In this document: positions 13,287 to 53,707 of the stretch, piece by piece | Layout of the letters: each line of letters starts with the position of its first letter | Position numbering within the stretch: position 1 is the first letter of the stretch | IMG/VR virus record: IMGVR_UViG_3300034069_002176 | DNA from: a virus | Length of the DNA: 56,094 nucleotides | Strand: one strand, 5' to 3' | Translations under genes and position numbers: made by a program | The notes under the pieces: generated by a model | Told to the model about the DNA's origin: nothing | Databases searched by the model: none | The model's input: only the letters and a program-made list of their open reading frames with translations

Positions 13287-13310
13287 AGTGTATCCCTAAC
13301 CGCCGATACT
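13287..13310 (-). promoter_or_regulatory. Non-canonical promoter AGTATCG-N11-TACACT
   Basis: Same architecture as the sites upstream of other DKNGK-tag genes. Confidence 0.6.
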
Positions 13311-13369
13311 TGCCACGGCTTGACAACGGTGCTAGATTACCCAGCGAGTACAACAACGAAAGCGTGAAA

Positions 13370-13879
13370 ATGAGCGAGAAGAAGACCGAAACGGTAATCA
13401 AACCGGTCGATGAGCCGATGGTGACTTCAACGCTGTCGAAGCGTCTGTATGGAAGCGCCGCCATCATCGCATTTGTTGGCGCTTTCGAAGCAAGCAACTG
13501 GGGTGTTGCCACCTCGATATTCGTCTTCTTGGGTGCTGCTTTCTTCGTTGCGGCGGGTATCTACAATTCCCAGAAGCTCGCTAAGCGCAACAAGGTTATT
13601 ATCGATTCCAATACTGCCGCATTGAATGCGTGGACCTATGGAGTATTCGCAGAGAGCGTACGCGGTAAGGTTGGTAACAAGGTGAACCTTACTGATGAGG
13701 ATATTAAGAACGTTGCTGACGGAAACCCCGTCTCATACATGTCGGGCAAGGATCGCTACACGGTTCGCCTGAGTGAAGAAACGAATGAAATCACCGTCAG
13801 GAAGAAGGCGGTCTTTACACAGAGCACTACGAGCAAGCTTCCTGAAAAGACGAATTACACAAGACCGCCCACTTTTTAG
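13370..13879 (+). CDS. Membrane protein (2 TM)
   Basis: Likely start MSEKKTE; two hydrophobic segments. Confidence 0.7.
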   Translation: MSEKKTETVIKPVDEPMVTSTLSKRLYGSAAIIAFVGAFEASNWGVATSIFVFLGAAFFVAAGIYNSQKLAKRNKVIIDSNTAALNAWTYGVFAESVRGKVGNKVNLTDEDIKNVADGNPVSYMSGKDRYTVRLSEETNEITVRKKAVFTQSTTSKLPEKTNYTRPPTF

Positions 13880-14577
13880 CGCAGACCATTCTCCGACTGG
13901 TAAGCGGACAGCGCTTCCTCGAACTTGCGCGGATTCCGATACACCTTGTCTTTCTTCGCTGACTTCTCTAAGGCAGGAAGACCTATTTCTGCATCCATGA
14001 CGTAGCAGAACGCCCCTTGAACAAGGTAGCGGTGCGCAGGGTCGATAGCCGTTCTACTTACTCCTTCGTAGAGGTGGTAGGCGAATGCACTTGCCTTGTC
14101 ATCTTCGGCTTTCAGAGCCGCGATGAGAATACCTTCGAGGATTTCCGCAAGCCTGGCGTTGAAATCATTCTGGTCCGCCTGGGTGGCTACCTGATAGTGC
14201 AATGCGTAATCGATGCCATCGGTGTCTGTCCTCCAGTCATCGAAAACTGCCGATAGCTCCGGCGCTATCTCGCTGAGTAGATGAATCCACATATCACCCG
14301 CAATTTGGAGGTACTGACCTTCTTCGACAAGGACGTACTCGCTGCTGGTGAGACGGTTGAAGTAGCGTTCTCCACGTTCGAGCTTCTTGGCTCGATCCGC
14401 TACCCAGTTGCGGGGAGTCACTCGCCAGATGTCATCGTTTTCGAATGACTGCACCAAAGGGACCACGGCTGATTCGTAGAAATCATCGTTGCGTCCAGTA
14501 AGGTTGCCTTCGAAACCCACCAGAATGAACTTACTTCCTGTGAGTGGTGCTTCTTCTATCTTCTTAGCCATTCGCAT
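13876..14577 (-). CDS. Hypothetical protein
   Basis: 233-aa ORF, leaderless-type start. Confidence 0.7.
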   Translation of the reverse strand: MRMAKKIEEAPLTGSKFILVGFEGNLTGRNDDFYESAVVPLVQSFENDDIWRVTPRNWVADRAKKLERGERYFNRLTSSEYVLVEEGQYLQIAGDMWIHLLSEIAPELSAVFDDWRTDTDGIDYALHYQVATQADQNDFNARLAEILEGILIAALKAEDDKASAFAYHLYEGVSRTAIDPAHRYLVQGAFCYVMDAEIGLPALEKSAKKDKVYRNPRKFEEALSAYQSENGLR

Positions 14578-14620
14578 AGCCTACCCAGTCAAAAGTAATC
14601 AGGGTACAAAACCAGAATGG

Positions 14621-15139
14621 TCAGCGGTTGGAACCATCACCGAAATCATCGAGAACGGCGGATAGGCTAGCGAGAGCGCTCTCCGATTCATTGTCAATGA
14701 GTAGATTCTCGATGGTTTGTAGCTTGATGAGCAGGTCAGTCTCATTGAATTTAGCAAGACCATTCGTACTGACCAAGAAAGTCGCCTCTTTGATACGTGC
14801 CTCGACATAGGACAGGAACTTCAGGGCACGGGTACGGCGGGAATTCATCTCGTCGGAGATTTCCAACCAGGCGGGAGACTGACCATTTGTAGCGCGGGGG
14901 TTCAGGGGATGAGTACGCTTTTCTTCGGCAATGAAGTTCAAGCTCGCCTGTACAGAACGCCGAACGAAACCAAGCTCGCGCAACCAATCGATAAGAACGG
15001 CTGGCTTTCGTAGCCATGCTGATTCCGCAGCGGACGCTCTACCTCGAATATCACTCTCTACGGCTTTGGAAAACTGCTCGTAATCGGTGATGGCGAAGGT
15101 GGGTGATTCAGTGATGTTCTGGCTTTCAATGGTGCTCAT
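14621..15139 (-). CDS. Hypothetical helical protein
   Basis: Likely start MSTIESQ with AGGA RBS. Confidence 0.7.
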   Translation of the reverse strand: MSTIESQNITESPTFAITDYEQFSKAVESDIRGRASAAESAWLRKPAVLIDWLRELGFVRRSVQASLNFIAEEKRTHPLNPRATNGQSPAWLEISDEMNSRRTRALKFLSYVEARIKEATFLVSTNGLAKFNETDLLIKLQTIENLLIDNESESALASLSAVLDDFGDGSNR

Positions 15140-15310
15140 GTGGTGTGTCCTAGTTTCAAGTGGTGCCGCATCGTAGCAACTGGGTTTCGAATTGTCCAAT
15201 ACGGCGTGAGATATTTCCCGTTTTGGGGACATATGGCATTGGGAAACCGCTTGTTTCCGGGATGTATCCTGATAGCCTGTACCAGTTCTCGACCTTGAAA
15301 GGGTTCTCAC

Positions 15311-15820
15311 GTGCTTGGCTACAAAACCGACAGTCCACATATCTCTCCCGAGCAGAAGAAGCGGGATGGTAGGTTCAGTGTCGGTTTCGCAATTGCGATG
15401 ATGATCGCAGTCGTCCTTTACGTCCTCGACAGGAACTACCTCCATGTCGGCTACTTGCAGCCAGTTGCATTCACTTTGTTCGGTCTCGCTATCGTTGCGA
15501 ACCTCGTCAAGGGCAACATTGACTGGCGTAAGAAGAAGGCTCGTATTGCAAGCGGCGAGATCAAGGTTGACACTCCCTCGGAGGACATTCAGGCGCAGGC
15601 TGAGAAGGTTGCTTCAATGAAGACTCCCAAGCGTTCTCGTGCAACCACTACCGACTACTCCGCACTTGACAGTCCCATTGAAGATTCCAGCCCCTCTACC
15701 GTTTCAGTGATCAAGAGAGACATCAAGGAAGACGCCGACCTTTCCATCATCATCGGTACCTCCACTGCTGATGACATGGCAAGTATCTTCGCACGCGATG
15801 TTCACAAGGACGAGAACTAA
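15311..15820 (+). CDS. Membrane protein (2 TM)
   Basis: GAAAGG RBS; two TM segments and a disordered tail. Confidence 0.7.
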   Translation: MLGYKTDSPHISPEQKKRDGRFSVGFAIAMMIAVVLYVLDRNYLHVGYLQPVAFTLFGLAIVANLVKGNIDWRKKKARIASGEIKVDTPSEDIQAQAEKVASMKTPKRSRATTTDYSALDSPIEDSSPSTVSVIKRDIKEDADLSIIIGTSTADDMASIFARDVHKDEN

Positions 15821-15833
15821 GTTCGCAGTTACG

Positions 15834-15869
15834 ACAAAGGCACCTAGAAGAAAATCTAGGTGCCTTTGT
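15834..15869. terminator. Bidirectional intrinsic terminator
   Basis: ACAAAGGCACCTAGA/TCTAGGTGCCTTTGT. Confidence 0.85.
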
Positions 15870-15882
15870 TGTCTCCGGTGAG

Positions 15883-16149
15883 CTACACGACCGGGTTGGC
15901 TCGACGCTCTTGAATGAAGCTCAGAAGTCGAAGAAGGTCCGCATCATTCGAAGGCGTGAGATCTACTTGGTGACGCACATCGAGTTCGATGGCGTTCTGG
16001 TCATTGGGGTCCAACTGGTTCCAGAGACGCTGGATTTCTTCTGTCACCATACCGACGATGTACGTCTGGCGACCGAGGGCGTACCTGAGTGCGCAGAGAA
16101 TCATGAACTGCCGGGTTTCGATTCTGTCGTTCGTAGCCATTGTCTGCAT
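15883..16149 (-). CDS. Hypothetical phage-type protein
   Basis: ALRYALGRQTYIV motif, which I recognise as recurrent in small phage proteins; GAAGG RBS. Confidence 0.7.
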   Translation of the reverse strand: MQTMATNDRIETRQFMILCALRYALGRQTYIVGMVTEEIQRLWNQLDPNDQNAIELDVRHQVDLTPSNDADLLRLLSFIQERRANPVV

Positions 16150-16274
16150 ACCTTCCGGGTTTCGAGTTACGTTACACTATCAGAGTTTTGTTGCAATACC
16201 TGGGGACAAGGTGCGAGTTCAAGATGTTTCGTAGAGTCTGTTTCTCATGGTCGTTGTGGGTGTATGCTTTGGTC

Positions 16275-17144
16275 ATGACTTAGGTACAGAAATCACTATC
16301 CCGTCCATTCCCATTGCCACCTCAGGTGCCGGTTCGAGAACAGTACGTTGCTGATGTAACGAACATCCCGAGTGCCGAAGGGCGTTGGTCCACTACCCAT
16401 GTCGCGATTCGAGATACCACTTCTCTCGTTGATGAAGGGGGTGGAGAAAAAGGACGGGTGGTATTCGAGTACGACCGCAACTATGCGATGCGGGGTACTT
16501 TCGAACCTTTTAGACAGTTGCGTGATGGCGTCTGGCACGACTATGCGCTGATATCAAGCAAGTACACGCGTTTCGAGGTGGTTGACCTCGCTAGAGGCGA
16601 GATAGTGGCTGTCGAGCCGTATCCCACGGTGAGTCAAGAGAAGCATGACCAGATCATCGCCTACAACCCTGAATCATCGTTCTTGACCGAGCATCCGGTG
16701 GGAAGTGAGATGCCGGGTTGGGGTTTCTGTCCGATTGATTTCCGCGTGTTCGACTGGCGGGAGCGATTCACTGATGATGCGCCGACCAAGACTTACGGCA
16801 AAGAGGGAGATGAGAAGCCTCTCTACTCAGACGAGAAGCTGTACTCACTCACCGGTCAGTGGGCTATCTACTCGGGTTGTGTCTGGGGTGATGACTCATC
16901 GTGGAAGCTGCGATACATCGACCTTTCGAGAATCAGCGAAGGTGTTGTTACCAGCGAGGACCGCTTCGGATACTTCCCTCTCGGCGGCAAACTCAGCAGC
17001 GTGACCTATGACGGTGAGGAAGATGAGTTTTACATGTCCGTTGAAGTAATGACTTCACGCAAGACGGGTAAGTCCTTTGACCCTGGCGTCAAGTGGGCAA
17101 AAGATGACGACGATTACTACAATCAAGGAGAAGAAAATGACTGA
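16275..17144 (+). CDS. Hypothetical protein; leaderless ATG interrupted by an in-frame TAG at codon 3 (alternative start TTG 16314)
   Basis: TATGCT(16263-16268)-N6-ATG ACT TAG, in frame with the 276-aa ORF; YSGCVWGDDSSWKLRYIDLS in the body. Confidence 0.65.
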
Positions 17145-17445
17145 CAACAAGAAGACCGAACGAGCGCTATTTCTGTATGGGCTGCAAACGGAATCGGAGT
17201 ACATGCAGAAGATTCCTTTGGAATTCGATGTGGATGATTCGGAACGAGATCAGCTTGGCGATTACTTATTCGACATCTGTGACTATTTCGGCTTGCCAAT
17301 GACGAATAGCCCGGATGTGAACCACGACCTCGTTGACATGGGAGATTTCATCACGGCTATTCGTGGTGCGCTTGATGCTGCGGGGTGGGTCTCGAAGAGG
17401 CAGCACGAACAAGAGCTAGAGCAAACTCGCCATCTGATTGACTAA
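17137..17445 (+). CDS. Hypothetical protein
   Basis: AAGGAG RBS; overlaps the upstream stop. Confidence 0.7.
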   Translation: MTDNKKTERALFLYGLQTESEYMQKIPLEFDVDDSERDQLGDYLFDICDYFGLPMTNSPDVNHDLVDMGDFITAIRGALDAAGWVSKRQHEQELEQTRHLID

Positions 17446-17464
17446 TGGCTACTTTTAGCACCCG

Positions 17465-18316
17465 CTAGCGAATCCATGTATCGCGTTCGCCGGTAGCGAT
17501 AAATGCAATGCGCTGAGAATCCTGCATGGTGAGACCGCCATTAGATTCACCACGGAGGATCATTTCTCCGGTGAGTCCGTTGATGGGGAAGTCGATGTTG
17601 GATGCAATGAATTCGCCTTCGGGGGAGTTGAAGCGTGTGACGTTACCCATGCGGTTGACAGTGAACTCACGGAAGCCGCCATCATCGGTCTTGTCATAAC
17701 GGAAAGTAGTGGAACCGTTGGGGAGTTCCTGTTCGATGTCAGGCTCGCCATAGATTTCTTTGGCTGCGTCAACAGATGCTTCCCATGTGCGAGTGACGCG
17801 ATGTGAAAGGAAAGTCGGCTTATCGAAGACGCCTGCGGTGGTGAGGTGCTTGAAGATGTTGGACTTTTGGAAGCGTAGCTCAATTACCCCGGTCTCGTAA
17901 TATTCGGTGTCTTCTGCGTCACGATCATCTAACGGAGTGTTCTCAAACGCAGTCAGTTCGGCTTCAAGGTCTTCGATGTGACTTTGTGCTGATAGTGCGT
18001 GTTCGTAGACGACCTCGGTTTGCTTTGCTGCTGTGTTGTTCCAAAGGAGGGCATTGGCTGCTCCGCCTACGGATTCGGAGTTGCGAAGTTCACGGGTCTT
18101 CTTGATACTGTCAGCAGCCCTTCCGAGAGCACTTACATCGTCCCAGAGGTTGTCCATCGCATCGGACATGGCATCGCTTTGTGGAATGAAGCTGGCGGGT
18201 TCGGGAGCTGCGGCTGATGCGATACGTTCGACAGCATTGAAACCTTTGTCGTCGGAGCGCCAGACGTGGGTCTGCTTGCCGTTCTTGTCTACGATGGGTA
18301 CTCGATTGGTGGACAT
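17465..18316 (-). CDS. DKNGK-tag family protein (unknown cargo)
   Basis: Starts MSTNRVPIVDKNGKQTHVWRS; RBS AAGGAAAGG. Confidence 0.8.
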   Translation of the reverse strand: MSTNRVPIVDKNGKQTHVWRSDDKGFNAVERIASAAAPEPASFIPQSDAMSDAMDNLWDDVSALGRAADSIKKTRELRNSESVGGAANALLWNNTAAKQTEVVYEHALSAQSHIEDLEAELTAFENTPLDDRDAEDTEYYETGVIELRFQKSNIFKHLTTAGVFDKPTFLSHRVTRTWEASVDAAKEIYGEPDIEQELPNGSTTFRYDKTDDGGFREFTVNRMGNVTRFNSPEGEFIASNIDFPINGLTGEMILRGESNGGLTMQDSQRIAFIATGERDTWIR

Positions 18317-18339
18317 GGTGAATCCCTTTCCTTGTGTCA

Positions 18340-18362
18340 AGTGTAGCGCCGTGGGGAGACAT
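18340..18362 (-). promoter_or_regulatory. Non-canonical promoter ATGTCT-N11-TACACT
   Basis: Variant of the GTCG-N11-TACANT motif, upstream of a DKNGK gene. Confidence 0.5.
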
Positions 18363-18394
18363 CTATTCGCTCGCCAATCGTAATTACTATTTTC

Positions 18395-18423
18395 TTGACA
18401 TTTTTCTAACTTCTAGCTAAACT
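18395..18423 (+). promoter_or_regulatory. Sigma-A-type promoter
   Basis: TTGACA-N17-TAAACT upstream of the HNH gene. Confidence 0.75.
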
Positions 18424-18449
18424 AAAAGTATCAATCAAGGAGGACCGTC

Positions 18450-18926: not shown

Positions 18927-19195
18927 GCGTCGTAGGAATCGTTGCCGGGAAGGTCATCGCGACAGCGCATCAGTCCATCATCGAGGGAACGAATGGTTTG
19001 TTCATTACCGTCGCCATGAAGAACTACGCACCCGATGGCGCGGAACTCAACGATGACGCCTTGGAAGACAACTGGGTCGAGGTGGCAGTAGATCAGGATT
19101 TTGCTGACACTATCGACCTTGATGATTCGGTGCGACTTGCGGGCGAGATGAAGTTCGCTAACGGCGTCTTCTATCTCATCGGTATCGAAGGCTGA
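18923..19195 (+). CDS. Hypothetical protein
   Basis: GTGA overlap with the HNH stop. Confidence 0.6.
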   Translation: MSVVGIVAGKVIATAHQSIIEGTNGLFITVAMKNYAPDGAELNDDALEDNWVEVAVDQDFADTIDLDDSVRLAGEMKFANGVFYLIGIEG

Positions 19196-19291
19196 ATTCG
19201 ACACCGTGACGCTGCGGTGGTATCATCGGATTACGAGGCTTCTACTCGTGTGATCCGGCAGGAACCGTAACCCCAGAAATGAGTATCCACT

Positions 19292-30061: not shown

Positions 30062-30523
30062 ATGAGCAACACAGTTCGCACACCCATCGTGGACAAGAAC
30101 GGCAAGCCTACTCACGTCAACAAGAAGGCTGATGCTCATGCCACCAGTTCTCGTGTGGCTGCTGTTTCTCCGACCGTTTCGGCATATGAAGAGCCGGTCA
30201 CTTTGCGTCCCAGCGGTCTCACGTATGAAGAAATCGTGGCTCAGTTCTCCGACTTCGTTCCTACGCATAAATGGAAGCGCGACATCGAGCATAAGACCAA
30301 CGATGGCGTTATCTCGTTGCTGAACTACACTCGCAAGGAAGGTATCTCTACGGATACTCCGATTGCGCCCTCAGGGAAGACTTTCACAGAACTCCGTAGT
30401 CACTTCGATGGTCTTCACTTTGCCAAGGAAATGCTTTCCAACGACGAGCGAACCATGCTGACGTGGGCGGAGTCGCTCATTCACAAGATTGATTCCGAGG
30501 CTCCTGGCGGATACGCTCACTAG
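30062..30523 (+). CDS. DKNGK-tag family protein (unknown cargo)
   Basis: Starts MSNTVRTPIVDKNGKPTHVNKK; GGAG RBS. Confidence 0.8.
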   Translation: MSNTVRTPIVDKNGKPTHVNKKADAHATSSRVAAVSPTVSAYEEPVTLRPSGLTYEEIVAQFSDFVPTHKWKRDIEHKTNDGVISLLNYTRKEGISTDTPIAPSGKTFTELRSHFDGLHFAKEMLSNDERTMLTWAESLIHKIDSEAPGGYAH

Positions 30524-31425
30524 CTCAGCTTGGCAACAGCTACTGATAGTTCGTGCTCATAGCGAGGCTCGAACTCGATAACCTCTCCGGGGAAGTAGTT
30601 TCGCCAATCCGTGCGAAGTCCTGCACCGACGAACGAACCTGCAATACAAGCGATGGAGTCCGAGTCACCGCCTGTACGAACGGCACGGTGAAGTGCCTGG
30701 TTCGGGTTCTCGTAGACATCGAAGATCTTGGCAGGGAGAGCTAGTGCTTCGTCAGCAACCCAACCTTCTCCGATGTAGCTGCATGGGTCGTCGAAGTGGT
30801 TCGTAACAATAGAGTCAGGGGTGTTTTTCGCTTTGGCGAGGGCTTCGACAACCTCGTTGTTATCCGCGAAGTCGAGTAGATATTCAACAAGCTGTCCTCG
30901 GAAGACCTCGTGGTTGGCGATAGCCCAAACTGCGCGGGCAGTGAGCGCGCTTGCTTCTAAGGCGGCGGGGTGTCCGTGCGTGATCTTGGCTTGGTCCGAG
31001 GCAAGCTGGGTGATGTCTTCGATAGGACGGTCGAGCAGACCGAGCCATCCGGCGCGCATGTTGGCTCCGCAACCTTTTGATATGGTGATGGTACCGGTGA
31101 ACGGGTTACCGATTTCGCGGGATGCCGCGAAGTGACTGAGGGCGTTCATACAGGTGTTTCCTGGCGCACGATTGTTGTCTGGGTCGTCCATCCACCGGAG
31201 GAAGATATCTCCAATGGAGAGTAGCTCGGCAGTGGAGCCGGGGTCGTTGGGCATGAGCCCTTGTACGACGGCGAGCGCCATTTGTGTGTCGTCTGATACG
31301 ACAACGGGAGACGGAATGGATACGTCTCGGGGAATCTGGTCGAAGCGCTTGAATTCTGTCTTGTATCCCCAGCCGTCTCCGAGTGCCGAGAGGTAAAGTG
31401 TGTTGCTGACTGTTTGCGTATCCAT
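30520..31425 (-). CDS. ADP-ribosylglycohydrolase (ARH/DraG family)
   Basis: ALGDGWG, VSDDTQMAL, GCGANMR, ITHGHP and GGDSDSIACIAG motifs. Confidence 0.92.
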   Translation of the reverse strand: MDTQTVSNTLYLSALGDGWGYKTEFKRFDQIPRDVSIPSPVVVSDDTQMALAVVQGLMPNDPGSTAELLSIGDIFLRWMDDPDNNRAPGNTCMNALSHFAASREIGNPFTGTITISKGCGANMRAGWLGLLDRPIEDITQLASDQAKITHGHPAALEASALTARAVWAIANHEVFRGQLVEYLLDFADNNEVVEALAKAKNTPDSIVTNHFDDPCSYIGEGWVADEALALPAKIFDVYENPNQALHRAVRTGGDSDSIACIAGSFVGAGLRTDWRNYFPGEVIEFEPRYEHELSVAVAKLS

Positions 31426-34030: not shown

Positions 34031-34065
34031 GAGTGTCGGGATGTTCGGCTACAATGGAGATAACC
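34031..34065 (+). promoter_or_regulatory. Non-canonical promoter GAGTGTCG-N11-TACAAT-GGAGATAACC
   Basis: Flanking boxes identical to 38613-38647; heads the three-gene DKNGK cluster. Confidence 0.7.
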
Positions 34066-34088: not shown

Positions 34089-34790
34089 ATGGCTGCAAGC
34101 AATAACACTGCCCCGAAGTACATCACCGACAAGAACGGTAAAATCACTACCGTTCACGCCCTTACCGAACCCAAGAACTCGAAATCGAACTCTCGTGTTC
34201 AGGCGCTGGGAAGACGGAGTACAACTACTCGCGATGATGGAACCGAGCGTAAGAGCCTTTTCCTCTCATCTACCGAAACCGCCAAACTCATCCGCGAGAC
34301 TCTCAAGGAGCAGTTCTCTGCTGAGTACCCCGACACCAAGTTCTCCGTACGTTCGTCTAGCTACTCCGGTGGTGCGTCTATCAACGTCTCCTACACCGAT
34401 GGTCCTTCTGATAAAGAGGTCAAGGAAGTAGTTGGCGGGTATGCAGGCTCGACATTCAATGGCATGATCGACCTCAAAGAGTACAAGTCTTCCAAGGCTG
34501 AGGATGGCACCGAGGTACACTACGGCTCCGACTACGTTTTCGTGCGTCGTGAAATCTCCGACAACAAGCGCGAGGACTACATGAAAGAACTCGCTGGCAT
34601 GCTCGGTGTTTCCGAAGTAGACCCAAACCGTCTGTACGAAACCCCTTCCGAAATCTACATGATGCGTGACAAGTACCGCGACCAGATTGGTAACCGTAGC
34701 ATTCGCTACGAAACCTACGCCAGCGAACTCGTCGAGGTAATCGCCATCGCTCGTGGCAAGGAAGAGCGTCAGGCGGCTCGCCATGAGTGA
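34089..34790 (+). CDS. DKNGK-tag protein carrying an LPD29-like (large polyvalent protein-associated) domain
   Basis: YITDKNGKITTVH tag; ETAKLIRETLKEQF...KFSVRSSSYSGGASINVSYTDGP...FNGMIDLKEY matches the LPD29 pattern as I recall it. Confidence 0.8.
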   Translation: MAASNNTAPKYITDKNGKITTVHALTEPKNSKSNSRVQALGRRSTTTRDDGTERKSLFLSSTETAKLIRETLKEQFSAEYPDTKFSVRSSSYSGGASINVSYTDGPSDKEVKEVVGGYAGSTFNGMIDLKEYKSSKAEDGTEVHYGSDYVFVRREISDNKREDYMKELAGMLGVSEVDPNRLYETPSEIYMMRDKYRDQIGNRSIRYETYASELVEVIAIARGKEERQAARHE

Positions 34791-35544
34791 CTCCAACCTC
34801 GTCAAAGTTCCCATCGTGGACAAGAACGGTAAGTCCACTACCGTACACAAGCGTGATGCCGACGCCGATAAGGGTAAGTCTCGTATCGGATCTGTCGGTG
34901 CGCCGAAAAGCAATCAGTCTGACAATAGTGAACTCGCCGCCGAGATCGATACCGAGATTTCCAAGGTGCAATCACAGTTGGACGTTATTAGTGCGAAGAT
35001 AAAGGCGTTGCAGGATGAAGCCAATCCTCTCGTAGAGCAGCGTAGTGAACTTATTGACATGAAGATGGAAGCCGAAGCGGGTAAGATTACTACCGACTCT
35101 CCCATCGAAGACATTCAAGCGTTGAACGATTTGGCATTCAGTCATTCAAGTGCCGCCAAGAACGAAAAAGAATGGGTGCGAGCTATCAACCCTCGTTTCA
35201 GGACCAGTTCGTACGACCAGGATAACCGTGTTCCGATTTTGCAGATGGACTTCGCTTACGAAGAGGCTATTACCGATGATTTGGTAGAAGATATTTCTAC
35301 CTTCTTGAACACGGTTGCAAACGGTCGTGACGAAGTGAGCTTTGAGCTTCTCAATATCGATGAGGACTCGCATTCTGTTGCGGTGAATCTTACCGATGGT
35401 ACGGCGACAGTGACACGTTACGGTCGTACTTACTGGAAGTTCGGAGACAATCCGAAGCCGCTTAAGAAGACTTTGGAGTGGGTCACAAAGAATCTACCGT
35501 TCACCGTTCCTGAGGGATCTTCATACCACCCTGACGATTACTGA
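34783..35544 (+). CDS. DKNGK-tag family protein (coiled coil plus unknown domain)
   Basis: Starts MSDSNLVKVPIVDKNGKSTTVHKR; overlaps the upstream stop. Confidence 0.8.
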   Translation: MSDSNLVKVPIVDKNGKSTTVHKRDADADKGKSRIGSVGAPKSNQSDNSELAAEIDTEISKVQSQLDVISAKIKALQDEANPLVEQRSELIDMKMEAEAGKITTDSPIEDIQALNDLAFSHSSAAKNEKEWVRAINPRFRTSSYDQDNRVPILQMDFAYEEAITDDLVEDISTFLNTVANGRDEVSFELLNIDEDSHSVAVNLTDGTATVTRYGRTYWKFGDNPKPLKKTLEWVTKNLPFTVPEGSSYHPDDY

Positions 35545-35581
35545 GCGCTAAGCATTACTTCCTAGAACAAAAAGGTTCGTA

Positions 35582-36370
35582 ATGGGCAACAACACTGTTC
35601 TTACGCCCGTTGTGGACAAGAACGGCAAGCAGACTCATGTCTGGAAAAATGCCGTCACGTTGGCAAAGGACAGAGTTCCTGGCGGACCACCTCCTGTTAA
35701 GCACAGTCCCACCGATGAAGCTTTCTTCGAGAAGATGCGTATGAAGCATGACATGGTTGTGTTCAATGGCAAGGAGTGGGCGCTTGGACCCGAAGGTATG
35801 TCTGGGGCATATTGCTTTCAATGCGATGGGTACTTCAGTAAGGAACTCATTCATACGTCGGGCATCGCAGCATTTGAATGCTCTCATTGTGGCGCTGGTG
35901 CTCTCGAAGGACTGACGGGTGTGGCTATCGCTTATGACTCGCAGAAATTCCTTGATGAAGAGACGACTTTGACAAGCACATGGTTCCACTCGACCGTCAA
36001 TCCAAATTGGGATACGGAACTTCAGGCGTATCAAGGTGAAGACACTCCGATGGTGCATCTCGGCACAATGGAAGCGGCAACTGTCCGTATGAACGACCTT
36101 CAACTGGAGAATTCTCATAGTAGCGAGACGCCACTTAAGTTCTACATTTACGAGGTGAAGTTGCTACCCACCATGAGCCTTTCGAGCGCGCTTGCGGATG
36201 ACAATAACGAACTCGCTCCCGAGACTGTTGCTGATTGGCGTAGAGACCAATTCGAAGAATACGACCTGTTTGGTGCCACTCGTTACGTGAACATGTATGA
36301 AGCAGCCGGTTCGATCAGCTTACTAGCCAACCCGCATCATTTCGAAGTTGTGAATCGGGTAGAAGTCTAG
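35582..36370 (+). CDS. DKNGK-tag protein with a Zn-ribbon and a possible ADP-ribosyltransferase-like domain
   Basis: TPVVDKNGKQTHVWKN tag; CFQC/CSHC; WFHST...VHLGT...A...FYIYEV...YVNMYE pattern (tentative ART fold). Confidence 0.75.
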   Translation: MGNNTVLTPVVDKNGKQTHVWKNAVTLAKDRVPGGPPPVKHSPTDEAFFEKMRMKHDMVVFNGKEWALGPEGMSGAYCFQCDGYFSKELIHTSGIAAFECSHCGAGALEGLTGVAIAYDSQKFLDEETTLTSTWFHSTVNPNWDTELQAYQGEDTPMVHLGTMEAATVRMNDLQLENSHSSETPLKFYIYEVKLLPTMSLSSALADDNNELAPETVADWRRDQFEEYDLFGATRYVNMYEAAGSISLLANPHHFEVVNRVEV

Positions 36371-38612: not shown

Positions 38613-38647
38613 GAGTGTCGCCCCTAAGCTCTACAATGGAGATAACC
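38613..38647 (+). promoter_or_regulatory. Non-canonical promoter GAGTGTCG-N11-TACAAT-GGAGATAACC
   Basis: Matches 34031-34065. Confidence 0.7.
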
Positions 38648-38660: not shown

Positions 38661-39644
38661 ATGGCTGGCAAGGTCAAGACGCCTATCATCGATAAAAATG
38701 GTAAGCAGACGCAGGTATGGAAGAACACTGATACCAATGAGGGTCCGGTCCGTTCTGGGGTCGTACCTATCGCGAAGGCTGCAACCAAATACAGCCAGCA
38801 TGAAGTTCTTGCTCGTCCTCCCATCGTGCTTGGTGAAGATGAGCAGTACGATTTCACCAGCGATGAAGACGGCATCTCTTGGGATGGTGACATCACGCGC
38901 GCCAACATCTACCGTACGGAAGACGAGGATGGCGAGTCTGTATACGTCGCAACGGGTTATGGCGTTGACATCGATGCCAAACGTTGGCTTGCGGGCAACC
39001 ACTTCGATATCACCGACGAGCAAGAAGCGTACGATTTCGTTCAAAAATATTCTGGTCTCATCGACACCTTCTTCCAACGCGAATACGATATTGACGAAAT
39101 GGAGTGGTCGGATGACTTAATTGCTTCGCCGGTATGGACCTTAGAGTCTCCCGAACCGATGTCACCTGACACAGCAATCGATCATTGGGACACCTCGGAC
39201 GCAACTCGCATTTATAACGAGAGCGACCCCGGAACTTTCGGTTCTAGAGATCTTTGGCGAGCGCTTGCTGACGAGATTCGAGCCACAGAGGAAGTCAAGG
39301 ACTATTCCGAGCAGGACATCGCGGAAGCGCTCGAAAGCTCTTATGGTCTAGGCAAAGAAAACGAACTACGAGCTATCGTTGCTAGTGGTCGTCTCAGCGG
39401 TAGCACCGGTCGGCGAATTGTCGAACAGCGTCAGTTGGTCAGTAACCCCAGCGCACCTTGGGACGCAATCAGCGAGGTTGCTAGTTCCACCAATGATGAG
39501 TCGGTTCAACTTATGGCTATCGAGACCGGTAAGCTTCCAGAGGGAGCTTTGGCATCACTGCGTGAGCGGACCATTCACCCCTCCGTCCGTGACGGCATCG
39601 ACGAGATTATCGGTCATAACATCCTCGAAGGATTCGGAGCCTAA
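38661..39644 (+). CDS. DKNGK-tag family protein (very acidic cargo, helical C-terminus)
   Basis: Starts MAGKVKTPIIDKNGKQTQVWKN; AAGGAG RBS. Confidence 0.8.
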   Translation: MAGKVKTPIIDKNGKQTQVWKNTDTNEGPVRSGVVPIAKAATKYSQHEVLARPPIVLGEDEQYDFTSDEDGISWDGDITRANIYRTEDEDGESVYVATGYGVDIDAKRWLAGNHFDITDEQEAYDFVQKYSGLIDTFFQREYDIDEMEWSDDLIASPVWTLESPEPMSPDTAIDHWDTSDATRIYNESDPGTFGSRDLWRALADEIRATEEVKDYSEQDIAEALESSYGLGKENELRAIVASGRLSGSTGRRIVEQRQLVSNPSAPWDAISEVASSTNDESVQLMAIETGKLPEGALASLRERTIHPSVRDGIDEIIGHNILEGFGA

Positions 39645-46947: not shown

Positions 46948-46956
46948 GTTGTGGCG

Positions 46957-47381: not shown

Positions 47382-49652
47382 ATGTCTACACAGTCGGATG
47401 CCAACAAACAAGCGGTTGAAGCCGTAGCTCGGCTGTACCGTTATGGCATCTCCGAGACCGACCTGACCCATGTTGAAGTCAGTCGAATGACGACGTATTT
47501 ATTGTCGTTGTTCTTTGTTGAGAAGTCTCATCGTCAAGTTGATCTGAGCGCCATCTCGACCGCTCTGGACATTCATAATGTGTCCATGTTGAAGACATTG
47601 GGAAACCCACTCCTTACTTCCCTCACTGTCTCTCATGAACTGGAATCGCTCACTAACGAATGGTGGCTGATTATCGATGAATGCCGACTAGTGGAATGGA
47701 ACGAAGTCAGCCCGCTTGTCTTTGGCTCCGCATTCCAAGGTGTTCTTGAAATGGATAGCCAGGAAATCACCAAAGAACTGAGCCACGGAGGTGGTAAGCG
47801 TCGTGAGTTTGGAGCGCACTACACCAGCGAAGAAAACGTCTTGAAGCTCATTGGTCCTTTGTTCCTTGACGAACTCATCCAAGAGGCGGCATTGGCAGAA
47901 GTCGAGCCGTTCTTGAGGAAGCTGTCAAGTCTTACTTTTCTCGACCCGGCGCTTGGTTGTGCCTCTTTCCCCATTGTCATCTACAAGTCGCTTCGACGCA
48001 TTGAAATGGACGTTCTGCAAAAACGCGGGAATGCCGTTGGTTCCGACGATTACCGGGTCAGTCTTTCACAGTTGTATGGCATCGAAATCAATCCAGAGGC
48101 GGCGTTGGTTGCAGAGCTTGCGCTAGCTGTTACCGCGTTGCAGATGGATGCAGAATCCCACGAGCGTTTTGGTTCGGTCAGTCATGACCATTCCTCGGCG
48201 CACATCACTGTAGCCAATGCGTTACGTATCGATTGGGAGTCTGTCCTTCCAGCAGAGCACTGTCACTACGTTGTAGGAAACCCGCCGTTCCGGGGCGCAT
48301 TGAAGATGACGAAGGATCAGAAAGCCGACATGAAGGCGGTCGGCATCGAAGCGCCTATCAAGTCATGGGGCGCTCTCGATTTGGTTGCTGCCTGGTTCAT
48401 CAAAACCGCCGTATACATCAACGGTGCGCAGGTAATTCAGCCTCATATCGAGCTAGATGGTCTATTCGATTTGTGGGAAAGTTCCGTACCTGTAATAGAC
48501 ACAAATGCAACTATTACGGCTGATTTCGCTCCAATAGCCACAAAAGCAGCTTTTGTAGCCACGAACTCTGTTGCCCAAGGTTCGCATGTTCCTAACTTGT
48601 GGACGTGGATGTTCGAGCATGACATGGAAATCGGATTCGCGTACCCCTCCTTCAAATGGACCAATGACGCGGCAGGTCATGCATCGGTCACAGTGGTCAT
48701 CATTGGTTTTGGTGCCGAAGGAACTTTCGAATCGAAAACCATCTATAGCAATGACGAAGCGAAATCCGTCGATTTCATCAATGGTGGTCTGACGCCGTTG
48801 AACGTCAAGGCGGTAGAGCCGGTGCGAGGTCGTGTTCTAAGCCCCGGAATACCCAATGCGGAACTGGGCAACCTTCCTCGCGGAAAAGCGTTCGTGGTGC
48901 TGCCTGAGGACCGTGCTGATGCTATTCGGCGCAACCCTGAACTCGAACGATGGATACCCTCGTTTATCGGCGCTGATGAGTTGACGAAAAATGGCGAACA
49001 GTATTGCTTGTGGCTGGTTGACGCACCGCAGCGGATTCTTGACGATCCGTTTGTCGCAGGTAGAGTTCGAAGCGTCAAAGAACAACGTCTTGCTTCGACG
49101 AAGAAAGAAACACGGGATGCTGCTGAGACACCAGCCATCTTCGATGAAGTTCGGCAACCGATACAGGGTTACCTTGCTATTCCTACGTCCTCGTCGGCAA
49201 ATCGTAAATACATACCGATGAAGTTCCTCCCTAAAACAACCATCGCTAGCAATGCGTTGAAGACCATTTCGGGTGCAACACCGTATCACTTCGCGGTGCT
49301 GAGTTCATCGATGCACATGGCTTGGATGCGAAGTACATCAGCGCGGCTTGGTGGAGGGAATGATTACAGCTATTCGGTAGCGAGTAGTTACAACACGTTC
49401 CCGTGGGTTGAAGCAGAACTATCAATGCTGGAAGAAATCACCGTTCACGGTCGTGATGTTCTTGGCGTGAGAAACGAGTACGTCGATATCCCACTAGGCA
49501 AGCTATACACGAACATGCCAGAGCCACTAGCGCTCTCACACGATCTTCTCAACGCTGCTGTGGACCGAGCATATGGATATGAAGGGGCGGATACTGACGA
49601 AGCTCGTTTCGAGTTCCTTTACCGTCTTTACGAGCGTCTTCTGGATCGCTGA
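47382..49652 (+). CDS. MmeI-like (type IIL) N6-adenine DNA methyltransferase lacking the N-terminal endonuclease
   Basis: RREFGAHYTSEENVLKLIGPLF, FLDPALGCASF, YGIEIN, GNPPF, AFVATNS..QG and P.SSSANRKYIP motifs. The N-terminus is too short for a PD-(D/E)xK domain. Confidence 0.85.
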   Translation: MSTQSDANKQAVEAVARLYRYGISETDLTHVEVSRMTTYLLSLFFVEKSHRQVDLSAISTALDIHNVSMLKTLGNPLLTSLTVSHELESLTNEWWLIIDECRLVEWNEVSPLVFGSAFQGVLEMDSQEITKELSHGGGKRREFGAHYTSEENVLKLIGPLFLDELIQEAALAEVEPFLRKLSSLTFLDPALGCASFPIVIYKSLRRIEMDVLQKRGNAVGSDDYRVSLSQLYGIEINPEAALVAELALAVTALQMDAESHERFGSVSHDHSSAHITVANALRIDWESVLPAEHCHYVVGNPPFRGALKMTKDQKADMKAVGIEAPIKSWGALDLVAAWFIKTAVYINGAQVIQPHIELDGLFDLWESSVPVIDTNATITADFAPIATKAAFVATNSVAQGSHVPNLWTWMFEHDMEIGFAYPSFKWTNDAAGHASVTVVIIGFGAEGTFESKTIYSNDEAKSVDFINGGLTPLNVKAVEPVRGRVLSPGIPNAELGNLPRGKAFVVLPEDRADAIRRNPELERWIPSFIGADELTKNGEQYCLWLVDAPQRILDDPFVAGRVRSVKEQRLASTKKETRDAAETPAIFDEVRQPIQGYLAIPTSSSANRKYIPMKFLPKTTIASNALKTISGATPYHFAVLSSSMHMAWMRSTSARLGGGNDYSYSVASSYNTFPWVEAELSMLEEITVHGRDVLGVRNEYVDIPLGKLYTNMPEPLALSHDLLNAAVDRAYGYEGADTDEARFEFLYRLYERLLDR

Positions 49653-49703
49653 AACCCCCAGTTAGGGGCTGAGCATTGACTTTTGCACCATATTGTGTAA
49701 TCA

Positions 49704-49780
49704 AAGGGGATCGAAAAGCTTATGATTCTTTTGTTAGCTACCCTGCTCACAGTGGTTCGATACCTACCCTGCTCCCCTCG
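49704..49780 (+). ncRNA. Candidate small RNA
   Basis: TTGACT at 49676; AGGGGA/TCCCCT ends; T-loop-like GGTTCGATACC; 11-nt repeat CTACCCTGCTC twice; followed by a terminator; no ORF. Confidence 0.35.
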
Positions 49781-49793
49781 AACTACTTAACGA

Positions 49794-49825
49794 CAAAGAC
49801 CCCGAGTTGCTGCTCGGGGTCTTTG
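49794..49825. terminator. Bidirectional intrinsic terminator
   Basis: CAAAGACCCCGAG/CTCGGGGTCTTTG. Confidence 0.85.
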
Positions 49826-49836
49826 CTGTAGGGGGC

Positions 49837-50220
49837 TTACTGCCGAAGCGCAAGGATGCTTCCAATGGCATCCCTGGCTCGTTGCATATCTGCTTCATTC
49901 AATTCTTGTGTTGCAATGAGTGTCTGTAACACTCGGGTTGAAGGGCTGACTCGAATGAGTAGCTCCGCAAGATCTTGTGGGAGATCCTCATTGGAAGCCA
50001 GCGCCATTTGAACAAGTTCATCAGCGCCATTCGGGTGATAAGCAATTGCTCTGAGAACTTCTGCCTTGTGGTTGTACCATGCCGGGTTCTGAGCTTCTTC
50101 CGCTAATGCGTCTACTCCCCAATGCTGGATGATTTGAGCCGGGGTGATTCGGTCAAATCTGTCGGTGTCAAGATATTCGTACTCCGTCTTGACTGGTGTT
50201 AGTTCTGGTGCAATTGTCAT
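49837..50220 (-). CDS. Hypothetical helical-repeat protein
   Basis: AAGGAGG RBS; TATAAT upstream; IAYHPN...LASNEDLP (LRV-like). Confidence 0.7.
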   Translation of the reverse strand: MTIAPELTPVKTEYEYLDTDRFDRITPAQIIQHWGVDALAEEAQNPAWYNHKAEVLRAIAYHPNGADELVQMALASNEDLPQDLAELLIRVSPSTRVLQTLIATQELNEADMQRARDAIGSILALRQ

Positions 50221-50361
50221 TTTTGCCCCTCCTTTGTAACCATTATAGGGGGCAAAGGGGTAATTTAGGTCGTATTTTTATTCTTTCAGGTGATTATCAG
50301 AAACTGGGTTACAGCATAATGACACTTGACTCCGTTACGAAGGGCGTGTACATTTGGATGT

Positions 50362-50724
50362 ATGAAGACACTTCTGATTGATGATGAGCGAAACTTCCTC
50401 GATGGTCGTGAGTCGGTCGTGCTCAGAAGTTCTCAGGACGCCATCGATCATTTCACTGCCGAAGATGGCTCGATTAGCGACGTTCACTACGATGAGGTGT
50501 GGCTCGACTTCAGCCTGCTTCGCAGTGACAGCATCATGGATTTCCTGTTCTTCGCCAAGAAGGCGGCAAACGCAGGAACTCCCCTCAGTGTCGATGAGTT
50601 CGTCATCCATACGAGTTCGTGGAGTGGGGCGAGCCTTATCGCCACGGTACTGGATGAGTCGGGATACAAACACCGTCGTTTCGATCCCTCATACCAAGTA
50701 CCCACCAAAATCATCGGAAAGTGA
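50362..50724 (+). CDS. Cyclic-phosphate-processing receiver-like domain protein
   Basis: LLIDDER, RS..DAI, VWLDFSL (cf. SLDHDL) and IHTS..SG motifs; TTGACT-N17-TACATT leaderless start. Confidence 0.7.
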   Translation: MKTLLIDDERNFLDGRESVVLRSSQDAIDHFTAEDGSISDVHYDEVWLDFSLLRSDSIMDFLFFAKKAANAGTPLSVDEFVIHTSSWSGASLIATVLDESGYKHRRFDPSYQVPTKIIGK

Positions 50725-50840
50725 CTAGCTCGACCACAATCGCTGTGGTACGATGCCAAAGTCAGTCAGTTTAATATCGTTCGTCGCTCAGTGTGAGTGA
50801 CTGGAAGTGTCATGCGCTTCCGCAATCGAAAGAGGTCAGC

Positions 50841-53126
50841 ATGAGTATCAACAAGGATATCTTGTTCCGTCGTCGCGGCGCTATCGTCGCACCCGTCCGC
50901 GAGGTTTTGTCTGCGAAGGCAGCCAAGGTCATCACCGAAGCCGACGCGCCTTATCTGGTCGTTACGGCTTCTCAGAACCTCAGTGCGCTCGGATACCGTT
51001 TCTCGGAGGACTTGTTCAAGTCTGCTCTGAACTCCAAGCTCAGCAATGATGAACTCGCTGCGTACCTGAGCGAGACGATTCAGTTCATCCGTAAGGCTAT
51101 TGGCGCTCAGCGCAAGTACAAGCCTGCCTACCCGAACTTCCCGACCCAGGTCATCGAGGCTAGCGAGTTCGAGTTGTACTTCAATGCCGTCCTGCACTAC
51201 TGGGGTATGGATTACCCGGACTACAAGATAAAGAATCGCAAGCCTTTGGACGAGGCAGCATTCAACGATCTTACCGAGCTTCGTGTCATCGGTGTTACCA
51301 AGCGCGGTCTGTCCTACAAGGCGGCTGTCTCTGAGTTCAACACCATCTTCACGAGCCTTCTGTCGATGCAGTCATCGTGGGGTGAGTCGGAGATCGCTGA
51401 TGCAGGATGGTTCGTCAACGCCCTCTCTGCTTCCGACTTTGACAAGCTGGTTCCTGATTCCATTCCGAACAAGGAAAACCTTGCCGCGCTCATCACTTCG
51501 GTGAAGTCTGCTGGAAAGACCGAACTGTTCGAGATCCTGCTGTCGCGTCTTGCGACTGCCACGGATGTTCTCCGTGTCGCCGTTGGTCTTTCCGATGGCG
51601 ATGCTGCACTGTCCGGTGTGGGTGTCGAGAAGACCCGTTTTGTCAGCCAGCCTAAGTCGGTTCGTCGTCTGCTGGTACACCGTCTGGAGACCATCTCTGG
51701 TGGTGACTCGGATCGGCTAATCGAGGACATGCTTCGTAACCGTGCGTTGTGGAAGCTGCTTGCTCACTCGTTGCACGTTGGTGACTTCGCTAAGTCGGCA
51801 CCGACCGTCCTGAGCGCTGTTTCGGTTGTTCGCGCCAATGGCAAGAACAAGGATGGTTCGCACTACGAGACTTTCGGTACTAAGGTAGAGGCGCTTATTT
51901 CTGCCGCCGAGAAGACCGTATCGGCTAACAAGCGCACCAAGGCGGCTGCGGCGAATGTCGCTACCGTTAATGAGTTGGTAGCGCTGTTGAAGACTCGTCC
52001 TGGTGTATTCGCGCGCCGTTTGGACAAGGTTCTTCGTTCGTCCATCGACAAGAACATTGTTCTGGACGCATTCGATATCGTCGCACCTTCGGTAGCTACT
52101 CCTGTTCTGTGGCAGCTTATGAACTTCTACTCCAACCGTGCATTCGTTGCCGGTAAGTCTCCGAAGATGAGCCGTACCTTCATCCCGAAGGGTCGCGCTT
52201 CGAAGATGATGGAGGCGAAGAATGTTCTTCCCGAGTTGGACTCTGTTCTGGTCGAGGGAATCGTTGAGCGTATCGGTTCGGCGCTGTCTGCCGTCTATCG
52301 CAAGCGTGACGCCATCGGTAAGGTCTTTGTTGCCGATGAATTGAAGACCTACACCGTGCCTTTCGGTGCTCGTTCGGCTTCCAAGGCGTTGAACCCTGTT
52401 GGTCGTGGTACTCGTGCTTACATCGACGATTCCGCCGATATCATTCGGTTCTTCGTCTGGTGGACCGATGGCGCTTCCCGTACCGATCTCGACTTGTCGG
52501 CTGTTTTCCTCGATGAGGACTTCAAGGTGTCTGGTCAGATCGCGTACTACAACCTTAAGGGCGATGGTGCTGTTCACTCCGGTGACATCACTTCCGCTCC
52601 GAACGGTGCATCTGAGTTCATCGACGTGAACCGCAAGAAGTTGCTGGCTCAGGGTCGTCGTTACATCGGTATGGTCGTCACGTCCTACACCGGTCAGAGC
52701 TTCGATACGCTACCCGAGGTCTTCGCTGGTGTCATGGAGCGTCAGGGTAAGGGTAAGAAGGGTGAGGTTTACGAGCCTCGCACCGTTCACAACGCCTTCG
52801 ACATCACCGCTCCGGGCAAGATCGCCATGCCCCTGATCATCGATTTAGAGAACAACTCATTCATTTGGGCTGACCTCGCTATCAACTCGCAGGACATGTA
52901 CGCGGTCAACGTCGCCAACAACGAAGGCGCGCTCAGCCGTTCCATCCGTGGTCTGGTCGAGTCGAACTTCGTTTCACTGCACGATGTATTCACTGCCAAT
53001 GCCGCTCGCGGTGAGTTGGTAGCAAACCGTGACGATGCTGATGTTGTTATCGACATCAGCCGTGGTCGTGTCATGGTCAACGGAGAGGTTATCGGAACCG
53101 ACCGTATCCTTTCCGAGTGGATCTAA
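50841..53126 (+). CDS. ROT/TROVE-like helical-repeat protein with a C-terminal TerD domain (Prok-RING_4-type architecture without the RING)
   Basis: P.YPNFP.QV, IPNKEN, TATDVLR.A..LSDGD, RPGVFARRLD, P.GRG, RTDLDLSA and HSGDITSAPNGASEFID (TerD) motifs; GAGG RBS. Confidence 0.8.
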   Translation: MSINKDILFRRRGAIVAPVREVLSAKAAKVITEADAPYLVVTASQNLSALGYRFSEDLFKSALNSKLSNDELAAYLSETIQFIRKAIGAQRKYKPAYPNFPTQVIEASEFELYFNAVLHYWGMDYPDYKIKNRKPLDEAAFNDLTELRVIGVTKRGLSYKAAVSEFNTIFTSLLSMQSSWGESEIADAGWFVNALSASDFDKLVPDSIPNKENLAALITSVKSAGKTELFEILLSRLATATDVLRVAVGLSDGDAALSGVGVEKTRFVSQPKSVRRLLVHRLETISGGDSDRLIEDMLRNRALWKLLAHSLHVGDFAKSAPTVLSAVSVVRANGKNKDGSHYETFGTKVEALISAAEKTVSANKRTKAAAANVATVNELVALLKTRPGVFARRLDKVLRSSIDKNIVLDAFDIVAPSVATPVLWQLMNFYSNRAFVAGKSPKMSRTFIPKGRASKMMEAKNVLPELDSVLVEGIVERIGSALSAVYRKRDAIGKVFVADELKTYTVPFGARSASKALNPVGRGTRAYIDDSADIIRFFVWWTDGASRTDLDLSAVFLDEDFKVSGQIAYYNLKGDGAVHSGDITSAPNGASEFIDVNRKKLLAQGRRYIGMVVTSYTGQSFDTLPEVFAGVMERQGKGKKGEVYEPRTVHNAFDITAPGKIAMPLIIDLENNSFIWADLAINSQDMYAVNVANNEGALSRSIRGLVESNFVSLHDVFTANAARGELVANRDDADVVIDISRGRVMVNGEVIGTDRILSEWI

Positions 53127-53137
53127 CCGGTCCATCT

Positions 53138-53173
53138 AAATAGGGTGTATAGCTCCGGCTATACACCCTATTT
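53138..53173. terminator. Perfect 16-bp inverted repeat, bidirectional terminator
   Basis: AAATAGGGTGTATAGC-TCCG-GCTATACACCCTATTT. Confidence 0.85.
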
Positions 53174-53177
53174 GCGT

Positions 53178-53660
53178 TTAGTCGTCAGCCAGTCTCAGCA
53201 TGGTCTCGGATACGGCATAGTCTTTATTTCGACCCGAGTTGGCAACGAATCCAAATCTTTGGTAGAACTTCACGAGTCGAGCCTTACTACTGCCGAAATC
53301 TGCCGAGGGACTGAGGGCGATATTCCAACCGTTCGAATCCGCTTCGTCAATTATTTCCTGCATTACTTTCGTGGCAATACCCTGACCACGCATACTCTCG
53401 GGTATCGATATCAACGATAAGGTGGCGAAGTCACTGAAGCTGCTACCACTGAGATGCAATGTGATTCCCGGATAGCGCTCTTTGACTTCCGCTGCGAAAT
53501 TAGAGGCTTCTTCGATGGAGCGCTCTGTGCGGACCGCTGAGGCTGCGGAGACTATTGGCGGGGCAGCGCGACCATATGAAGAAGCTGGCGCGTCTGAGCG
53601 CTTATGACGGTGTGAGGCGATGCCGTTTTTGTCCACTATCGCTGTGCGTACAGTAGTCAT
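53178..53660 (-). CDS. DKNG-tag protein carrying a GNAT acetyltransferase domain
   Basis: Starts MTTVRTAIVDKNGIASHRHKR; IPESMRGQGIAT, RLVKFYQRFGFV. Confidence 0.85.
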   Translation of the reverse strand: MTTVRTAIVDKNGIASHRHKRSDAPASSYGRAAPPIVSAASAVRTERSIEEASNFAAEVKERYPGITLHLSGSSFSDFATLSLISIPESMRGQGIATKVMQEIIDEADSNGWNIALSPSADFGSSKARLVKFYQRFGFVANSGRNKDYAVSETMLRLADD

Positions 53661-53684
53661 AACCCCTCCTTGCTAGTTAGTCTC

Positions 53685-53707
53685 ATAGTAACCGTACCCG
53701 GCGACGA
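53685..53707 (-). promoter_or_regulatory. Non-canonical promoter TCGTCG-N11-TACTAT
   Basis: Same spacing as the other DKNGK-gene promoters. Confidence 0.6.

Follow-up and report, generated by a model that had tools for sequence, protein, structure and literature searches.

This report concerns the promoters of a family of tagged genes on a phage-like mobile element, as seen in a 56,094-nucleotide (nt) stretch of viral DNA from the IMG/VR database (record IMGVR_UViG_3300034069_002176; the whole stretch is referred to as the window). Eight window genes begin with the N-terminal tag P-[IV]-[IVT]-D-K-N-G-K-x-T-x-V (the DKNGK tag), and seven of them belong to transcription units preceded by the motif TGTC[G/A]N-N10-TAnnnT, in which the GTC is almost invariant, the spacing is strict and a -35 box is absent. 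The window sites are probably PafBC-dependent promoters read by the PafBC of the host. This reading is favored because sequence, spacing, predicted position, the absent -35 and the lack of a palindrome all agree with the published consensus for PafBC, tGTCgg(N10)tA(N3)T (PMC8635444). A first-pass annotation of this DNA had described the motif as a distinct promoter class; given the match to the consensus, the promoter type is one already known. What would be new is a cargo regulon of a mobile element that is wired to PafBC. A literature search found no description of PafBC-type promoters on phages or plasmids, and the present case may be the first example of a mobile element exploiting the mode of activation termed "sigma adaptation."

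Promoter sites in the window

The window has a G+C content of 52%, and its genes lie on both strands. The eight tagged genes, each recognized by its N-terminal tag, form six transcription units:

12518-13261, minus strand: tagged gene, behind the promoter at 13287..13308
17465-18316, minus strand: tagged gene, behind the promoter at 18340..18361
30062-30523, plus strand: tagged gene with no recognizable TGTCG-class or canonical promoter (sequence and matrix scan)
34089-36370, plus strand: operon of three tagged genes, 34089-34790 (LPD29 domain, by domain match), 34783-35544 and 35582-36370
38661-39644, plus strand: tagged gene with the N-terminus PIIDKNGKQTQV
53178-53660, minus strand: tagged gene with a GNAT acetyltransferase domain (by domain match)

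A degenerate DNA pattern for the tag was run on IMG/VR and returned mostly chance matches and one true relative, a 202,737-bp contig (G001) rated 96% complete. Two scoring matrices were built from relatives. The G001 matrix was trained solely on 13 sites of that contig, and the 48-site matrix was built from relatives' sites chosen in part with a matrix to which the window's own sites had contributed. The predicted PafBC-type promoters of the window, with their ranks among about 112,000 window positions and the predicted transcription start sites (TSSs), are as follows; the last line gives a further site considered with them:

38616..38637, plus strand: TGTCGC-N10-TACAAT, promoter of 38661-39644; predicted TSS A at 38644; rank 1 with both matrices
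34034..34055, plus strand: TGTCGG-N10-TACAAT, promoter of the operon 34089-36370; predicted TSS A at 34062; rank 2 (G001 matrix) and 4 (48-site matrix)
18340..18361, minus strand: TGTCTC-N10-TACACT, promoter of 17465-18316; predicted TSS A at 18333; rank 3 (G001 matrix) and 2 (48-site matrix)
53685..53706, minus strand: CGTCGC-N10-TACTAT, a CGTCG variant, promoter of the GNAT gene 53178-53660; predicted TSS near 53678; rank 5 (G001 matrix) and 3 (48-site matrix)
13287..13308, minus strand: TATCGG-N10-TACACT, a TATCG variant and a weaker promoter, of 12518-13261; rank 15 (G001 matrix) and 6 (48-site matrix)
54962..54983, minus strand: AATCG-N11-TAGACT ahead of the untagged gene 54383-54955; not a supported class member (rank 72, score 3.8, 48-site matrix)

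The first five of these sites had been picked out by the first-pass annotation, and all were found at the positions it gave; with the 48-site matrix they take ranks 1, 2, 3, 4 and 6. The gene list and the promoter scan likewise bore out its count of five of six units and seven of eight tagged genes carrying the motif, and the matrix scan agreed that the 30062 gene lacks a clean match. The sixth site, ahead of the 54955 gene, had been offered as an untagged member. Its sequence is there; its membership of the TGTCG class was dropped in view of its rank and score. The -10 of this site ends 6 nt ahead of the ATG, a leaderless layout. Among the variant boxes, CGTCG recurs in metagenome sites, and TATCG and CATCG occur in relatives.

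The degenerate pattern by which the sites were first described has six matches in the window against 1.37 expected; none of 100 shuffles reached six, and the cited sites make up five of these matches. This pattern was fitted post hoc, so independent data were used as the real test.

Association with the tagged genes

The first five tagged genes seen in G001 all carry TGTC[G/A]-N11-TAnnAT 7-32 nt before the ATG. The contig as a whole has 13 TGTCG-class sites, and these lie ahead of tagged genes or of operons containing one. The window and G001 were then taken together, with called genes and the motif sought within 100 nt upstream. Of the 27 tagged genes, 14 were preceded by the TGTCG class, as against 3 of the 242 untagged ones (Fisher p = 1.4e-13); among these three is the first gene of an operon in which the second is tagged. 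For the canonical promoter TTGACN-N17-TAnnnT, the distribution was the opposite, with none of the tagged genes vs. 37 of the untagged ones standing behind it. The enrichment before tagged genes for which the first-pass annotation had proposed a check is thus present.

A search of metagenomes with the tag pattern matched at least 120 stretches, and the removal of internal matches and duplicates left 78 tagged gene starts among the matches listed. A matrix built on the window and G001 sites was used to score the upstream regions, with open reading frames (ORFs) of the same loci as controls. A score of at least 10 bits was reached by 47% of the 78 tagged genes vs. 2.9% of 278 control ORFs, some of which are non-genes (p = 7e-21).

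Within the window, promoters of the form TTG[AC][CT]-N17-19-TAnnnT are found ahead of 12 untagged genes, in keeping with the earlier reading of most other promoters as TTGACN-N17-TANNNT. These genes start at 4768, 8085 (minus strand), 13364, 18450, 21453, 27575 (minus), 27728, 38549 (minus), 40173 (minus), 43303 (minus), 50362 and 53927. Several of the canonical promoters diverge from promoters of tagged genes (e.g., 13364/13261, 18450/18316 and 38549/38661). The TGTCG class is therefore tightly linked to the tagged genes, exclusive of the canonical -35/-10 class and devoid of a -35 contact, which upholds the idea of a separate regulon that depends on an activator. The shared promoter class also supports the view of the tagged proteins as a co-expressed set, and the tagged genes are very probably co-regulated.

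Motif anatomy and predicted transcription starts

Eighteen sites from the window and G001 were aligned. Each position of TGTC is conserved in 17 or 18 of them and the final G in 16, followed by C or G, N10 and TAnnAT. A G at -14 was found in 13 of the 18 sites and an A at the predicted +1 in 14, and the information content of the -35 region is zero. Among the matches listed, 35 metagenome sites repeat this picture: G, T and C of the triplet occur in 34, 34 and 35 sites, respectively, and A at +1 in 25, a column that lay outside the matrix with which these sites were selected. Over the sites, the base after TGTC[G/A] is C, T or G, the -10 reads TA-n-n-A/C-T, and an A stands at the seventh base past the -10. 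The region from -40 to -29 holds no information, and the spacer and the leaders are unconserved.

Spacing is as constrained as sequence. In the 78 tagged upstream regions among the matches listed, TGTC stands ahead of TAnnnT 31 times at a spacing of 12, and each of the other spacings from 5 to 21 has 0-3 occurrences; TTGAC before TAnnnT was found at no spacing from 5 to 21 in the same regions. When all combinations of 5-mer and spacing upstream of TAnnnT were counted in the intergenic DNA of the window and G001, just two classes emerged, TTGAC at 18 (18 times) and TGTCG at 11 (12 times). A palindromic partner to the box (CGACA or GACA) or a conserved upstream half-site was not found.

Gaps between the -10 and the ATG have a bimodal distribution. 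In 10 metagenome cases among the matches listed, and in two from G001, the gap is exactly 6 nt, with one further metagenome case at 7 nt; the remaining gaps span 17-39 nt and contain a Shine-Dalgarno box. The 6-nt gap would be the signature of a leaderless mRNA. Because of these gaps, and because A is enriched at this position, transcription is predicted to start about 7 nt past the -10, and the box would therefore lie at -28 to -24. The predicted starts agree with the distance of about 6-7 nt from the -10 that the first-pass annotation had set as a check. The leaderless layout is common in these elements (54383-54955 on the minus strand of the window; metagenome loci such as L152, L219, L229 and L240) and could serve to correct start codons.

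The two plus-strand promoters of the window (34050-34065 and 38632-38647) share 16 identical bases, TACAATGGAGATAACC, which run from the -10 into the leader and are absent from the other sites. A shared downstream sequence had been pointed out in the first reading, and the copies are indeed identical. This sharing could reflect a recent duplication or an additional common leader element.

Correspondence to PafBC-dependent promoters

PafBC is a heterodimer of WYL-domain proteins, and the promoter type that it serves is the older "RecA-NDp" DNA-damage promoter. In the in vivo consensus, the 3′ part is the -10 of SigA and the 5′ part, at -23 to -28, is the "-26 element"; PafBC-dependent promoters have no -35 (PMC8635444). 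The GTC triplet, contacted by two arginines of the PafB helix-turn-helix, shows conservation throughout actinobacteria, and the site itself is not a palindrome (PMC8635444; PMC6789036). PafBC was shown to insert between region 4 of SigA and the DNA, the mechanism named sigma adaptation (PMC8635444, Muller et al. 2021). Its activating ligand is single-stranded DNA (ssDNA; PMC11804915).

Other identities were considered for the box. The initial working idea, a new MotA-like box, was dropped once the literature match to the PafBC consensus was found. The site of the activator SiwR was rejected since its box is a palindrome with GGA and the window box a non-palindromic GTC. The GACAC motif of WhiA and the heptad repeats of SARP regulators were set aside as well, the position being wrong and repeats being absent.

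Several points weigh against the identification with PafBC-dependent promoters. A recognizable site is missing from about half of the tagged genes, of which some are internal to operons and others show no discernible promoter. Where mycobacteria have "gg" directly after TGTC, the present sites have G or A and then C, T or G; the published consensus marks both positions as at most 50% conserved (PMC8635444). The metagenome contrast is inflated by the non-genes among its control ORFs, a weakness from which the called-gene test on the window and G001 is free. What the sequences show directly is the identity of the motif, its geometry, its conservation and its link to the tag; the positions of the TSSs, PafBC as the reader, its origin in the host and the inducing signal are all deduced from these, and the presence of pafBC in the host is assumed. 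Finally, an adaptor resembling PafBC may be encoded by the element itself, outside the 56-kb window.

The reader of the promoters

The first-pass annotation had attributed the promoters to a sigma factor or activator encoded by the element and had suggested a search for sigma-like and WhiB-like proteins. No match to Sigma70_r2 was found in G001, which is rated 96% complete, and no WYL domain was matched there even at E<=1. Among the best 25 of the 31 Pfam families that matched the 82 called window proteins, no sigma, WYL, HTH_11 or WhiB family was found. One WhiB-like gene did appear in G001 (184361-184942, plus strand). Its product, 193 residues in length, carries a long extension at the N-terminus and has a basic tail, and genes for replication and repair lie around it (SbcCD-like, DinG-like helicase and SSB-like). 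WhiB proteins bind region 4 of SigA, and the G001 protein could modulate promoter choice. The WhiB-like gene of G001, a DUF2510 protein encoded in the window and the frequent leaderless starts all point to Actinobacteria as hosts. Since no gene for a sigma factor or WYL protein was found in G001 and none was listed for the window, the reader is probably the PafBC of the host.

The best of the competing explanations retains the promoters and changes the reader. An adaptor encoded by the element outside the window, whether a paralogue of PafBC or a winged-helix protein unrelated to it, would read the same -26/-10 promoters on a schedule of its own, for instance as a middle or late class like that of MotA/AsiA in phage T4. 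The geometry of T4 middle promoters is alike, their box lying 11-13 nt away from the -10 of sigma-70. G001 encodes the WhiB-like protein described above, and inspection of the element covered the 56-kb window only. Against such an adaptor, G001 carries 13 sites and is rated 96% complete, yet yields no WYL match, and the families listed for the window contain no candidate. The box, moreover, is the GTC specific to PafB, which goes beyond a mere shared position; SiwR, a WYL activator that also acts at -26, uses a GGA palindrome instead (PMC10693628). An element-encoded adaptor is thus unlikely, and the PafBC of the host is preferred as the reader.

It was also considered whether TGTCG activates at all. 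The box could be the operator of a repressor or an inherited remnant, in which case a cassette of promoter and tag would have been copied and the -10 alone would drive constitutive transcription by SigA. Tag and promoter could spread jointly by duplication, the two plus-strand window sites do share the bases of TACAATGGAGATAACC, and many actinobacterial promoters function without a -35 (PMC8635444). However, the spacers, flanks and leaders of the sites are unrelated, the leaders being absent or 17-39 nt long, and across distant contigs conservation is confined to the positions contacted by PafB and SigA. An independent repressor would accept shifts of 1-2 nt in spacing, and none were seen; the box is also non-palindromic. 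For these reasons, an operator or a copied cassette is very improbable. The weakest explanation, an alternative sigma factor of the element that reads TGTCG as a short-spaced equivalent of the -35, was suggested by the first reading and has a parallel in the many large phages with sigma factors of their own, but it is highly improbable: no sigma gene was found in G001 or listed for the window, an 11-nt spacer is too short for the arrangement of regions 4 and 2, and the sites bear features of the housekeeping SigA (TAnnnT, the G at -14 and the A at +1).

Proposed regulation and its implications

The regulation proposed for the tagged genes would proceed as follows. Each promoter would pair an ordinary SigA -10 (TAnnnT, in many cases with G at -14) with TGTCG as the -26 element 11 nt upstream, and would lack a -35. 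ssDNA would switch on PafBC, which would then insert between region 4 of SigA and the DNA, with the helix-turn-helix of PafB reading the GTC at -23 to -28. From a start about 7 nt past the -10, transcription would yield mRNAs that either are leaderless or have a short leader containing a Shine-Dalgarno box. Promoters of this predicted type lie directly ahead of roughly half of the tagged genes of the element and its relatives, some of which encode anti-restriction or polyvalent-protein domains. Their products would be made when ssDNA builds up, whether through replication of the element, through nuclease attack on incoming DNA and its resection, or through damage to the DNA of the host. A response to ssDNA fits replication-coupled, attack-coupled and damage-induced timing equally well, and no support was obtained for the late timing proposed in the first-pass annotation.

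A broader proposal is put forward more tentatively, at somewhat less than even chances. Giant actinobacterial mobile elements may have wired a large, tagged and probably anti-defense regulon to PafBC as the ssDNA sensor of the host, and the cargo may be made exactly when the DNA of the element replicates or is cut and resected by host defenses. If true, this would be the first regulon of a mobile element run by sigma adaptation. It would also represent a protein-sensor analogue of the ssDNA promoters in the leading regions of plasmids and of the replication-coupled late transcription of T4.

The apparent new promoter class has in this way become a concrete regulatory link that can be tested: about half of the sampled tagged genes seem to be controlled by PafBC, and they are never found under ordinary SigA promoters. 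The link to PafBC points to an actinobacterial host that carries PafBC and suggests when the cargo is made, namely during replication, nuclease attack or DNA damage. Furthermore, the rule TGTCG-N11-TAnnnT, in which the ATG follows the -10 after either 6 nt or some 17-39 nt, can aid the annotation of start codons and transcription units in such elements.

Tagged proteins and neighboring genes

Most of the tagged proteins are uncharacterized. In the window, one contains LPD29, a polyvalent-protein domain, and one a GNAT domain. In G001, the gene at 123480-124523 (plus strand) lies directly behind a TGTCG-class promoter, and its tagged product combines an ArdC N-terminal domain with a zincin peptidase domain of the polyvalent-protein kind. 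The ArdC family comprises anti-restriction proteins. By their domains, these proteins look like counter-defense or polyvalent-protein modules, and the tagged proteins are probably anti-defense proteins.

No relative of a tagged protein was found among cultured phages, and phage and plasmid collections gave no near match to the window. A literature search found no description of a DKNGK tag in the present sense, and a scan of genome contigs with the tag pattern returned, among the matches listed, unrelated CBS-domain proteins. The tag is rich in lysine, typically with 3-5 K per 15 residues (e.g., window 38661-38730). The pafBC genes sit in the Pup-proteasome locus, and pupylation removes many proteins of the PafBC regulon (PMC6789036). 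It is pure speculation that the lysine-rich tag is tied to the Pup-proteasome system, the genomic and functional partner of pafBC.

Other observations concern the remaining genes of the window and of G001. Three ADP-ribose-removing domains were identified in the window by Pfam (ADP-ribosylglycohydrolase, Macro and NADAR), and the ADP-ribosylglycohydrolase gene lies at 30520-31425 (minus strand). A DNA-ADP-ribose macrodomain hydrolase of Streptomyces is reportedly placed under a RecA-NDp promoter. The promoter of the window gene starting at 53927 is canonical and not of the TGTCG class. In G001, tRNA-like T-arm sequences at 72-74 kb appeared among weak matrix matches, making a tRNA cluster on the contig probable. 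When 20 large G001 proteins were scanned against PHROG, the genes named were those for replication and repair, and none were structural. A protein of 1030 residues with an FtsK/SpoIIIE-like domain is encoded at 177617-180709 (plus strand). Conjugation in actinobacteria employs FtsK/SpoIIIE-like translocases, and given this protein, a plasmid-like lifestyle of these "phage" contigs is possible.

Comparison with known systems

The closest known system is that of the PafBC promoters of mycobacteria and other Actinobacteria (PMC8635444). Like these, the present sites span 22 nt as TGTC-N12-TAnnnT, with an invariant GTC at a predicted position near -26, a SigA -10, no -35, no palindrome and a fixed spacing. 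Unlike the known promoters, which are chromosomal, they lie on a phage-like mobile element and its relatives. The known targets are DNA-repair genes, whereas the genes here encode tagged, mostly uncharacterized proteins (LPD29, GNAT and ArdC-like). After TGTC, G or A and then C or T are preferred here instead of "gg," and the dependence on PafBC is a prediction from sequence. The SiwR promoter of Mycobacterium smegmatis, served by an actinobacterial WYL activator in the -26 region and induced by genotoxic stress, resembles the regulation proposed for the present sites. It differs in that its site is a 19-bp imperfect palindrome with a conserved GGA, and the sites described here are non-palindromic with GTC (PMC10693628).

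The middle promoters of T4 (MotA box and sigma-70 -10) offer a parallel from phages, as a regulon in which a box placed about 11-13 nt ahead of a normal -10 takes over from the -35 contact. The T4 box is TGCTT, at -30, and the box here is TGTCG, matching the site of PafB. T4 also encodes its own factors and remodels region 4 of sigma, whereas no factor of the element was found here, homologues of MotA and AsiA not having been searched for. In the leading regions of conjugative plasmids, anti-restriction genes are driven by single-strand promoters, which are folded hairpins of ssDNA read directly by RNA polymerase. The likeness to the tagged genes lies in the idea of anti-defense genes triggered by an ssDNA signal at entry. 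The difference lies in the sensor: on the present element, a protein that senses ssDNA, PafBC, would act on double-stranded promoters.

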